From: Nitrosopumilus sp.
GTDB lineage: Archaea > Thermoproteota > Nitrososphaeria > Nitrososphaerales > Nitrosopumilaceae
Assembly (NCBI GenBank): GCA_965224195.1
Contig: OZ245040.1
Span: 1,536,001-1,600,000, forward strand
Direction of reading: 5' to 3'
Length of the DNA: 64,000 nucleotides
The position numbers and the translations under genes are program-made. This document shows positions 9,080-14,153 of the stretch, one piece after another. Below the pieces are notes generated by a model, which did no database searches, had not been told where the DNA came from, and saw only the letters and a program-made list of their open reading frames with translations. The number at the start of each line of letters is the position of its first letter. The stretch's first letter is position 1.

Positions 9080-9973
9080 GGTTCTGCTAACTTATCGAGG
9101 GATAAACTAGACTGAATTTTCCTTGTATAAACTGGCGTTTTCAATAATAGTTTTCCATCTATTCTTACCATCAACTTCAATCATGGCTTGTTCTGCTGGT
9201 GTCTTGCCTTTCAAAGAACCGTGTTTCTTTGTGAAATTGTAATAGGCCTTCATTCCGTCAATCAAAGGAGTATCAAATTTCTTTAATCCTCGGAATACTT
9301 TCTCTCTGTCTCTTATTTCTCCATTCAATCTCTCCATCTTGTTATTGCTGCCTCTGCCTCTTCTGCCTGCAATGTGAATATGTCCGACATGGTTGGTTTT
9401 CTTTCCAAAGACTTTCTTGCTTGACTTCATATATGCTGGCAGTCCATCAGTTACAAAGTGTGCAGGGGATTTTCCAATCTTCTTTTTTGTCAATTCCAAT
9501 AATGTGCCTGCATTATGCTGGAATTTTGTCTCTGACGTGTCACTAGCCAACCAGTAACGAGTATCATCATCCATAGAGGCAAAGAGATAGTTTTGTTTTC
9601 CTGCGATTTTAATCCAAACCTCATCTGCTCTGACCATAGCCCTGTCATTGGTTCTTGGTACAATGTCATTTAGATATTTTGAAACCATTGTGGAATATTT
9701 ACAAATCCATTTGTAAACTGCAACATCAGATACCTCAATACCCATCATCTCATAATGGTTTGAAATATCCCTTGTGGACATCCACGAATAATACATTTGT
9801 AATGCATCTGTAATTGTATTGGGGCTATCTTGTTTTCTCAAATCCAAAGTTTAAGCTAAATTTCTTCTTGCAGTCTAGACATTCAAAGATTCTAACTTTA
9901 CCGTTTTTGTTCTTTCTAAATCCATCTTTTCTTAATCTGCCTGAATCACAGTATTTGCATAGTTCTAATTTTG
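9080..9973 (-). mobile_element. IS6-family (DDE, IS240-like) element; frameshifted transposase with N-terminal Zn ribbon, 5' end cut by the next IS
   Basis: ORF 9107-9847 has RADEVW, VTDGLPAY, NNKMERLNG; CKYC...CLDC lies in another frame at 9850-9970; terminal repeat GGTTCTGCTAACTT at 9080-9093. Confidence 0.9.
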
Positions 9974-10455
9974 GGTTCTGTTGCGTTAGTGGGTGTTAAG
10001 TAAAAATCTTATTCGTGTTGCGTGTCGGGTGTTTTTGAGGCGTTTTGAATTATGGTCAACCATTTGTTGTTTCCTTTAATGTCAATGCCTGCCCTCAAAG
10101 CTGGCGTATTACTATACAAGCTCATGTGAGGTCTAATGTAATTGTGATATAGCTTGATTCCTGTTAAAGCTGGACTGTCGTCTTTTTTCAAACCACGAAA
10201 TACTTTCTCACGATCCCGAAACTCACCGTTCAATCTTTCCTGTATGTTGTTGTTGGCTAATTGATTCTTAAAGTGAACATCTTTGACGTGCTTGCTTGGC
10301 TTGTGTAGGAAATTCTTTGGTGCAAACTCCTTTTTGAATGCGTCATTATACGCTGGCAATCCATCAGTTACAAATGTAGAGGGAACTTTCTTTGCAACTT
10401 TCTTACCCATCTTTAGAAGACTTTGAGCGTCATGCTTGAACTTACTATCTACCAC
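9974..10455 (-). mobile_element. IS6-family element, 5'-truncated transposase (10009-10455)
   Basis: VTDGLPAY, NNNIQERLNG, WLTIIQNASK; terminal repeat GGTTCTGTTGCGTT at 9974-9987, resembling the IS257 end. Confidence 0.9.
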
Positions 10456-12400: not shown

Positions 12401-13566
12401 GGCATTGTAAAGTTGATGGGGCTTTAGATCCTAATTTTCTCTTGTCAACTTTCGAGACCTACATTGTTACTTTTCGGTTGCTGTGAAAACAATCTAAATT
12501 TGGAAATAAAATATGTATTTGCAATGATGGATGATGAAACCAGATTCTGGATTGCTCAAGAAGTTGGTGACAGAAAAGAAGGACATAACGCAGGAGGGTT
12601 ACTACAAAAGGCAAAACAAGTTACACAAACAAAACCTAAAGTGTTCATCACAGATGGTCTAGGATCATATCATGAAGCATACAAGAAAGAATTTTGGACA
12701 TTGAAAAGACGTAACAGAACATTACACATCAGACATATTCACTTGCAAGATGACATGAACAATAACAAGATGGAACGACTCAATGGAGAAATTAGAGATA
12801 GGGAAAAAGTAATGAGAGGAATAAAGAAAAAAGATTCAGTTACACTAACTGGTTATCAGTTGTTTCACAATTACATTCGACCACACAGTGCATTAGGTGG
12901 ATTGACACCTAGTGAAAAATGTGGTATGGAGATTCAAGGAGACAATAAATGGATTACATTAATTCAGAATGCTAGTAAGAAATGATTATTGATTATCTTG
13001 ACAATGAACAAAGAACAGGATTTTTCTATCTCTCATTGGATTAATTACAACTTCTACTCTTCCATCAATGATAAACAACATGTGTCCTGCACTTTTTTGA
13101 ACATGTGTACATTCAACAAATGCAGGATGTTTTTCAGGATGTTCAAATTCAACAATGTCTGTTTTGAATTTGGTTAGAAGATCTACGGAAGGATCAGAAA
13201 CATACTCAATATTTACAAAATATTGTGACCACGTAGGTGTTTTACATGTCCAAAAACGAGTCAATATGTAACAAAAACTACTGAGGGATTAAATATCTAC
13301 TTCTTGATCTTCCGTATGCGTCTCAAATTTCTTAGATGATTCTTGTGCTATTTTGAAATGACGTTCTTCCCAATGTCTTTTCTCGGATTTCATGTTATAA
13401 TGTAACATAATACATGTTATAAATTTTCGAAGTTTTACAACAATCACACACGATTATTAAGAAATTTACATAATCTTAATAATATTTGATATTTGGACGG
13501 TACCACTCAAATCTCCATCAACTGACTTTTTACGCCTATTTTATCAACCGCAGGCTTTACAGAACC
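12401..13566 (+). mobile_element. IS6-family element with passenger ORF(s); truncated transposase 12464-12985
   Basis: ITDGL, NNNKMERLNG, WITLIQNASKK; IS6-like ends GGCATTGTAAAGTT (12401-12414) and, on the minus strand, GGTTCTGTAAAGCC (13553-13566). Confidence 0.8.
12986..13264 (-). CDS. IS passenger hypothetical protein (size and pattern weakly RelE/ParE-like)
   Basis: 92 aa ORF whose stop abuts the transposase stop, inside the terminal repeats. Confidence 0.5.
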   Translation of the reverse strand: MTRFWTCKTPTWSQYFVNIEYVSDPSVDLLTKFKTDIVEFEHPEKHPAFVECTHVQKSAGHMLFIIDGRVEVVINPMRDRKILFFVHCQDNQ

Positions 13567-13642
13567 CAAAAATGACTAAAACTGATCCGTTTTTCGTATA
13601 AAATGGACCAAACGGTTATAACGTAATAATGTGAAAAGTACG

Positions 13643-13752
13643 GTATGCAACTTACTGTAACATATAACATTGAGAAAACTCTAAATATTCAGTTAGCCTA
13701 AATGCGTTAGACTAAGTATGCAACCTACTGTAACATATAACATTGAGAAAAC
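13643..13752. repeat. 37-bp direct repeat (13643-13679, 13716-13752; 1 mismatch) flanking a 36-bp unique insert
   Basis: gtatgcaac(t/c)tactgtaacatataacattgagaaaac x2; insert tctaaatattcagttagcctaaatgcgttagactaa. Confidence 0.95.
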
Positions 13753-13939
13753 CACTAGTGGTTTTATTGGACAATGTGTTCAGTTTCCACAAATATTCAC
13801 AGAAGCAAAAACTGAAACTGCACTAAAAAAAGAAATGGATGTTGTTTTAGATGGTTATTTCAAAGCATGTCCACAAGCACACAAAATGATTAAGAAAAAT
13901 GTAGGACATGGAACGTACGAAATCAAGAAAAACGCATAA
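13718..13939 (+). CDS. HicB-like antitoxin
   Basis: IEKTTSGFIGQCVQFPQIFTEAKTETALKKEM follows the HicB beta-beta-beta-alpha pattern. Confidence 0.7.
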   Translation: MQPTVTYNIEKTTSGFIGQCVQFPQIFTEAKTETALKKEMDVVLDGYFKACPQAHKMIKKNVGHGTYEIKKNA

Positions 13940-14153
13940 CTGGAATCAAATCCATTATGTGGTTACTACAATTTTAGGATATAGATCACTTTCAAAATAT
14001 CGAGATGCTTATGTTTACTATCAGCGTGCTGGTTCTTACATAATACCCGTAAAAAAATCCAATTCATTGTCTAAAGAATATACTCAAAAATTAATTCCAT
14101 TGTTTGGAATTTCATATACCGAATTTGTAGATTTGTATAAATCTCGTTCTTAA
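13908..14153 (+). CDS. Divergent HicA-like toxin
   Basis: Overlaps the hicB-like gene; ILGY...IIPV...LSKEYTQKLIPLFGISYTEF resembles HicA but lacks the GSH motif. Confidence 0.55.
   Translation: MERTKSRKTHNWNQIHYVVTTILGYRSLSKYRDAYVYYQRAGSYIIPVKKSNSLSKEYTQKLIPLFGISYTEFVDLYKSRS

Follow-up and report, generated by a model that had tools for sequence, protein, structure and literature searches.

At the start of a 73-aa gene, the window analysed here (64,000 nucleotides of the chromosome of a Nitrosopumilus sp., corresponding to C1:1536001-1600000 of that genome, G000) carries a direct repeat of 37 nt, the two copies of which stand 73 nt apart from start to start and enclose a spacer-sized insert that is unlike either flank (Table 1). 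The copies differ at a single position, the tenth, and the bases adjoining them differ on both sides (g and a before, t and c after the two copies), which sets the maximum extent of the repeat at 37 nt, while a true duplication of 36 nt extended by one chance match is a conceivable alternative sizing. The insertion duplicates the start codon and leaves the gene itself intact. In a preliminary description of this DNA, the locus had been presented as a 37-bp repeat (or 36 bp plus a chance match) that displaces an intact gene by 73 bp and creates an upstream open reading frame (ORF) of 18 codons, and all of these details are correct.

Table 1. Features of the duplicated gene start and its surroundings, in positions of the window.
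Feature	Position	Strand	Remarks
TATA-like box TTATAAC	13616..13622	+	29 to 23 nt 5' of the ATG of copy 1; presumed pre-insertion promoter
TAC at -4..-2 before the target	13639..13641	+	matches the leader end of the 37-nt array (TTACA/GT, the slash marking the border to the repeat)
Copy 1 of the 37-nt target	13643..13679	+	derived T at position 10; contains the first ATG
Upstream ORF of 18 codons, made by the insertion	13645..13701	+	translation MQLTVTYNIEKTLNIQLA; stop codon within the insert
Insert of 36 nt, spacer-sized	13680..13715	+	no donor match in the collections searched
Copy 2 of the target	13716..13752	+	ancestral C at position 10; 5' end of the intact gene
73-aa gene	13718..13939	+	open frame from the ATG of copy 2; HicB N-terminal/UPF0150-like fold (predicted), without DNA-binding domain
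81-aa ORF overlapping the 3' end of the 73-aa gene	13908..14153	+	conserved along with the 73-aa gene at homologous loci; without recognisable family

The product of the 73-aa gene is 97% identical to a database homologue of 74 aa. It belongs to no family above threshold, the UPF0150-like match in Pfam (E=0.15) reaching 12.4 bits against a cut-off of 27.3. An AlphaFold2 model built from eight sequences (pLDDT 72.5) predicts three strands and a long helix, followed by a disordered tail from residue 63. With this model, HicB antitoxins and UPF0150 proteins predominate among the best Foldseek matches (E 0.2-1.5), and HicB/UPF0150 chains also lead in VIA-align, with middling Z scores of 5.2-7.7. 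The predicted arrangement of three strands and a helix matches structures of HicB and UPF0150 proteins best, some solved members of the latter being as short as the 73-aa product. On the other hand, the scores are middling, the C-terminal DNA-binding domain of HicB is lacking, as the model stops after the helix, and the neighbouring ORF is not recognisably HicA. The designation 'hicB-like' in the preliminary description accordingly holds as a weak match at the level of the fold to HicB/UPF0150, but not at the level of the family, where the Pfam score falls below the cut-off and no HicA-like partner is recognised.

The overlapping 81-aa ORF matches no Pfam or NCBIfam family, and its helical model, of low confidence (pLDDT 65), finds no match in Foldseek. 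A HicA-like pattern perceived by eye in this ORF was not borne out, with neither a family nor a fold match. Since the resemblance to HicB is a weak fold match and a HicA-like partner is not recognised, the remark that the insertion may shift a toxin:antitoxin balance is speculative.

The uninterrupted form of the locus is represented twice. A paralogue of the two-gene cassette in the same genome (C1:2050810-2051256, 81% identity) and the homologue of the cassette in a relative, G017 (84% identity), each have a single copy of the target, and when copy 1 and the insert are removed, the window aligns collinearly with both loci across the upstream region. In each of the three loci, TTATAAC occupies the positions 29-23 nt 5' of the ATG, and the stretch AAA.TAC.GTATG likewise recurs in the aligned upstream region. 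The proposal that the gene has been moved 73 nt away from its promoter is thereby supported, as the promoter-like box stands directly before the ATG in both the paralogue and the G017 homologue. Judged by how far TATA boxes usually lie from the start in archaea, this box would act as the promoter of the gene, and its position, together with the same general distance, suggests that before the insertion the mRNA probably started at or just before the ATG. At the position where the two copies differ, the homologues have a proline codon with C; as this is the base of copy 2, it was copy 1 that changed after the duplication. With one mismatch only, which lies in the copy that is now outside the gene, the event is recent as far as can be read from the sequence.

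The unit, i.e. both copies together with the insert, is not an artefact of assembly, since contigs of three sequencing runs contain it. Two independent contigs from two public runs, of 260 nt (X1, 13538-13797) and 246 nt (X2, 13552-13797), span it with zero differences, and a contig of a third run from a separate study (X3) crosses it with no gap of 73 nt. A joint lacking the 73 nt is absent from the contigs of four runs, which as contigs drop rare variants, and an empty orthologous allele from a closer strain was not recovered there.

There are three CRISPR-Cas loci in the genome; every one has a Cas1 of its own and one of three Cas2 genes beside it. The array with a 37-nt repeat (C1:1457180-1466714, 132 copies) contains 131 spacers, which mostly measure 35 or 36 nt (38 and 40 spacers, respectively), and adjoins a type I-B-like set of genes for Cas7/Csh2, Cas5, Cas3, Cas1 and Cas4. 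The array with a 36-nt repeat (90 copies) has spacers of mostly 36-37 nt, with 37 nt in 31 of 89, and is adjoined by type I-G genes, which encode a Cas4/Cas1 fusion, Csb1, Csb2 and Cas3g, while the array with a 30-nt repeat (68 copies, spacers mostly 36-37 nt) is adjoined by type I-B genes for Cas6, Cas7, Cas5, Cas3, Cas4 and Cas1b. The leader ends in TTACA before the 37-nt repeat and in CTGCT before the 36-nt repeat; the terminal bases of the repeats are G...C in the former and A...C in the latter.

The duplication at the gene start has the length of a resident repeat (37 or 36 nt) and its insert that of a resident spacer, and the combination of 37 and 36 nt is the modal unit size of the 37-nt array. 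Likeness to the resident arrays thus extends to the lengths of unit and spacer and to the first and last base, which are those of the 37-nt repeat. In contrast to an array, it is the start of the local gene that has been duplicated, there is one unit only, and cas genes are not found nearby.

These dimensions recur throughout the chromosome (G000 C1, 2.06 Mb, 33.6% G+C). When direct repeats were sought that measure 28 nt or more, differ at no more than two positions and lie at spacings of 40-200, 58 isolated pairs emerged, 49 of which have copies shorter than their own spacing. Spacings of 70-76 hold 32 of these 49 pairs (2, 4, 7, 10, 6, 2 and 1 per spacing, with the peak of ten at 73), while the remaining 17 are scattered across 154 other spacings, often at multiples of three, as repeats within proteins would be. 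As 32 of the 49 isolated pairs cluster at 70-76, the dimensions of the unit at the gene start are not due to chance. Trimming with a stricter score left 45 candidates at spacings of 60-90, among them a core of 31 units with duplications of 34-39 nt and inserts of 33-40 nt. Duplications of 36 and 37 nt occur nine times each in the core and those of 38 nt seven times, and the two copies are identical in 21 units, differ at one position in eight and at two positions in two. Because most core copies are identical, the detectable events are recent, and old units would escape the scan.

Two further units, at C1:912673 and C1:1228750, have duplications of 30 nt around inserts of 36 and 39 nt and fit the array with the 30-nt repeat, which suggests that all three adaptation modules may have misfired. 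Altogether, the chromosome most likely carries about forty off-target integration units. Two of them lie in the same window, at 5050-5085/5121-5156 and 6932-6967/7004-7039, with duplications of 36 nt and inserts of 35 and 36 nt, respectively, and are presumably the first and second of the three scars named in the preliminary description. The former is found at the start of a minus-strand ORF of 223 aa and the latter at the end of an ORF of 136 aa. Clustering of the units along the chromosome is marginal (11 gaps below 10 kb versus 6.9 expected, p=0.05), and their open-frame context is mixed, as some interrupt long frames, some are in frame and many lie within short frames.

The origin of the inserts sets these units apart from the true arrays. 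Eight of 40 inserts have a counterpart elsewhere in the chromosome that aligns to them from end to end with 0-5 mismatches, the similarity ending at the borders of the insert. Self copies delimited in this way show a copy-and-paste of spacer-sized DNA, as Cas1-Cas2 performs. The three true arrays behave otherwise: among their 287 spacers, not one matches another part of the genome over more than 24 nt, i.e. self-targeting is absent there. Unit inserts thus include self-matching sequences and array spacers do not, which is consistent with a selection against self-targeting that acts on the arrays only. Inspection by eye of the eight self-derived protospacers revealed no common flank that could represent a PAM.

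A donor for the insert at the gene start was not found in its own genome (E up to 0.05) nor, with up to three mismatches allowed, in 150 further genomes of the genus. Viral and metagenome contigs likewise gave no exact match, a comparison that would miss a diverged donor; against phage records, only chance matches of 17-21 nt were obtained (E 1-5). The insert is probably foreign in origin. A donor absent from the collections is usual for CRISPR spacers and is compatible with off-target integration.

With respect to the choice of target, the 31 core targets taken over their full length resemble the real repeats at the level of chance (mean best identity 14.2 versus 13.9 for the 36-nt repeat, and 15.1 versus 15.1 for the 37-nt repeat), and the target at the gene start, with a best ungapped identity of 14/37 to the 37-nt repeat (p=0.84) and of 17/36 to the 36-nt repeat (p=0.056), is not above chance either and does not belong to a resident repeat family. 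The junctions are a different matter. At the 62 target ends of the core units, the first target base is G or C at 38 (34% expected), C is enriched at -2 (24 of 62), and the motif T-R-C at -4..-2 is present at 14 ends versus 2.8% of random sites; the corresponding p of about 2e-9 is optimistic, as the motif was noticed in the same data. T-R-C occurs at one or both ends of 12 of the 31 units. Both real leaders for which the ends were compared, TTACA and CTGCT, end in T-R-C-N, and this agreement is the independent part of the support for the motif. In addition, one target end is more like the terminal ten bases of the repeats than random sites are (Mann-Whitney p 8e-5 and 5e-4), and a junction score over 21 positions fixed beforehand is modestly raised in the whole set (p 0.002-0.01). 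A de novo motif search by expectation-maximisation remained unconvincing, with a best log-likelihood of 47.7 versus 32-44 for six random sets, for which fewer restarts were used.

The junctions of the gene-start target, gTACg/GT...AAAC, are in register with TTACA/GT...AAAC of the real 37-nt unit, and the combination TAC.GT(31)AAAC occurs only 27 times in the chromosome when both strands are counted, a significance that is too optimistic because the agreement in TAC, GT and AAAC was picked after inspection of the data. The likeness of the target ends to archaeal repeats, to which the preliminary description had drawn attention, can therefore be upheld for the ends as such: the 37-nt repeat starts with GT and ends with ATTGAAAC, and the target has GT at positions 1-2 and AAAC at 34-37. 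It does not extend inwards, as the interior is unrelated and identity in register amounts to 11 of 37 positions only; the ATTGA pointed out in the target lies 3 nt out of register with the 37-nt repeat. Of the leader-like stretch described upstream, the TAC that matches a real leader end stands, but the significant feature is the T-R-C motif and not the richness in A and T. Nor is the designation as the most CRISPR-like of the three in the window supported, as the unit ties with the other two on the I-B junction score; its own score over the 21 positions is 10/21 (p=0.35), and several units elsewhere reach 13-14. Hit by a single event, the site is at most a putative preferred target. The site thus has junction bases that seem to matter and is not repeat-like.

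With the structure and the dimensions of the unit, the empty site in the homologues, the resident enzymes and the genome-wide family all at hand as observations, the unit at the gene start can with considerable confidence be attributed to off-target spacer integration by the archaeon's own Cas1-Cas2. A prespacer of 36 bp, probably foreign, would have been joined to the chromosome by two staggered attacks on opposite strands 37 bp apart, at a site that happened to bear suitable junction bases, namely TAC upstream, G or GT at the first and AAAC or C at the last positions, and gap repair would then have duplicated the 37 bp between the cuts. Because the target held the start codon of a small gene behind a promoter box, a decoy ORF of 18 codons would have come to occupy the old position, while the intact gene would have been displaced downstream by 73 nt, to a place that follows a stop codon and lacks an obvious ribosome-binding site.

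Among the resident modules, the geometry of 37 plus 36 nt favours the type I-B module of the 37-nt array, which was probably, with a modest degree of confidence, the one that acted. The Cas4/Cas1-Cas2 of type I-G is a possible though less probable author of the unit, in which case the true duplication would measure 36 nt and the insert 37 nt, with one terminal chance match. A spacing of 73 nt is equally the sum of 36 and 37, the modal I-G unit in view of the frequency of 37-nt spacers (31 of 89), and the best identity of the target to any real repeat, 17/36, is to the I-G repeat in reversed orientation (p=0.056). Furthermore, nine of the 31 core units have duplications of exactly 36 nt, and the I-G module is probably behind many units. 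For the gene-start unit, these points are countered by the mismatches that flank both borders of the 37-nt repeat, by the terminal bases G...C, which fit the 37-nt repeat and not the A...C of the I-G repeat, and by the TAC upstream, which fits the leader end TTACA of the 37-nt array, while the I-G leader ends in CTGCT.

The relative G017 (1.94 Mb) provides a comparison for the attribution to resident modules. It has one array, with a 30-nt repeat, and a Cas1 query returned no homologue of the Cas1 of the 37-nt module or of the I-G Cas1. The repeat-pair scan nevertheless finds 43 isolated pairs in this genome, 10 of them at spacings of 72-76, about five of which look like true units; similar units with spacings of 72-74 occur for example at C1 193510, 344304, 782372, 1680226 and 1904174 of G017. 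At least three of the ten pairs, all with a spacing of 75 (17716, 742907 and 777244), share one C-run repeat. The load of units in G000 is several times that of G017. As G017 has units although no such system was found there, a resident system with 36- or 37-nt repeats is not strictly tied to the units today; a possible and the simplest explanation is that the G017 units were left by a 36/37-nt system that has been lost.

Whether integrated by the I-B or the I-G module, the unit might in principle work, as the preliminary description supposed, like an array of one spacer, transcribed from the promoter of the gene and processed to a crRNA that guides interference, a role that is very improbable. 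The unit lies directly 3' of a promoter-like box and is probably transcribed within the mRNA, and the GT and AAAC of the target ends, along with the displaced ATTGA, are reminiscent of the 37-nt repeat. A scar can moreover be hit again, as suggested by a nested locus at C1:1090832-1091014 of the order X-Y-I-Y-X, in which a 37-nt duplication (X) surrounds a sequence of 36-38 nt (Y) that is itself duplicated around an insert of 35 nt (I); it looks as if a second integration had targeted the first insert, and this locus is the sole hint in G000 toward the birth of an array. Against a working guide speak the low identity to the real repeat and its unrelated interior, the lack of a match to any CRISPR family of Rfam in 13400-14000 (E up to 1) and the weak predicted folds of the two copies, which are unlike that of the real repeat and reach -1.7 to -2.9 kcal/mol versus its -5.8 kcal/mol. 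The units as a class are also unlikely to yield working guides because self-matching inserts, which ought to be purged from functional loci, are tolerated in them and absent from the arrays. As judged from these features, the unit is most likely an inert scar and not a working CRISPR locus.

An origin unrelated to CRISPR, be it a tandem duplication of 73 nt with a diverged second half, slippage during replication or a footprint left by a transposable element, would suit a region rich in remains of mobile elements but is hardly credible, since neither the sequence that follows copy 2 nor the rest of the genome has any likeness to the insert, so that the order is A-B-A and not A-B-A-B, and about 40 units combine unrelated inserts and targets with the sizes of CRISPR units, eight of the inserts being precise copies of distant loci. 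Casposases generate target duplications of about 14-15 bp, and we know of no transposase that makes target duplications of 36-37 bp around a cargo of about 36 bp. The mobile-element remains near the gene include fragments of an IS240-type DDE transposase at 9107-9847, 10009-10455 and 12464-12985, which places the unit in an island rich in such elements, and a stretch of 267 nt 5' of the promoter region (13300-13567) has 99% identical copies at C1:1891839 and C1:1426911.

For the 73-aa gene, the insertion probably had a consequence. The true start of the gene follows the stop codon of the decoy ORF by 16 nt, and inspection of the sequence before this start revealed no purine-rich motif for ribosome binding. 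In this position, the gene and the ORF overlapping its end are probably translated at a lower level, with both frames intact.

The mechanism as such is known. Nivala, Shipman and Church 2018 (Nat Microbiol) reportedly observed, in E. coli with overproduced Cas1-Cas2, integration at off-target sites and the formation of neo-CRISPR loci, and are said to have presented circumstantial evidence in two other species. The E. coli events, as reported, and the unit at the gene start have in common a spacer-sized insert, a repeat-sized duplication of a target outside CRISPR and a few bases that agree with the real leader-repeat junction. While a type I-E system was overproduced in that work, the events considered here are natural and took place in an archaeon with I-B and I-G systems; about 40 of them are present in one chromosome, a host factor of the IHF type is not implied, and a start codon has been hit, with a rewired 5' end of the gene as the outcome.

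In vitro, Cas1-Cas2 of P. furiosus integrates at non-CRISPR plasmid sites that are separated by one repeat length, favouring G/C where it attacks and a few bases of the leader and repeat ends (PMC6698737). The units reported here share with these reactions an archaeal integrase, paired attacks, the G/C preference, the bases of leader and repeat ends and the dispensability of identity to a whole repeat; they differ in that purified proteins, plasmids and a spacing of 30 bp were used there, while repaired genomic products with duplications of 36-37 bp (30 bp in two) are at hand here (PMC6698737). Off-target integration has likewise been seen in E. coli overproducing Cas1-Cas2, according to two reports (PMC7054753; bioRxiv 10.1101/148544), one of which calls its natural frequency unclear (10.1101/148544). 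A literature search with most subscription journals outside its scope turned up no archaeal genome for which dozens of natural scars had been described. The unit at the gene start is one more natural example of a known mechanism, and the genome-wide set is the more valuable result.

The combination of a finished genome, three intact adaptation modules and dozens of repaired off-target products, one of them on a start codon with a clean comparison to the empty site, makes the set of units an in vivo readout of the target rules of the integrase and a sample of captured DNA before selection. The set further shows that CRISPR adaptation carries a mutational cost, for example in genes that are interrupted or displaced. 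One may tentatively go further and regard the chromosome as a natural record of adaptation that is unfiltered by interference, in which about one fifth of the captured DNA is self, a target code is legible and units are hit again, a reading for which less than an even case can be made at present. If it holds, the minimal target code would consist of T-R-C-N before the first cut, G/C at both cuts and a ruler of 36, 37 or 30 bp; the nested unit would show how a new array begins to form; and the unit at the gene start would be the clearest single example of the code (TAC.GT...AAAC), combined with a rewired start of translation of a gene. Taken alone, the unit at the gene start is a modest matter, with a probable effect on a small gene of predicted HicB fold.

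Some units depart from the common pattern. At C1:798295, 923061, 1129510, 1326359 and 778950, duplications of 43-57 nt surround inserts of 21-35 nt at spacings of 75-89, and these could be errors of the integrase ruler or something else. A unit of 37 plus 36 nt at C1:3949-4058 lies within an open frame of approximately 2,030 aa that would be disrupted by excision of the 73 nt, which leaves two possibilities, a frame restored by the insertion or a different origin of the unit.
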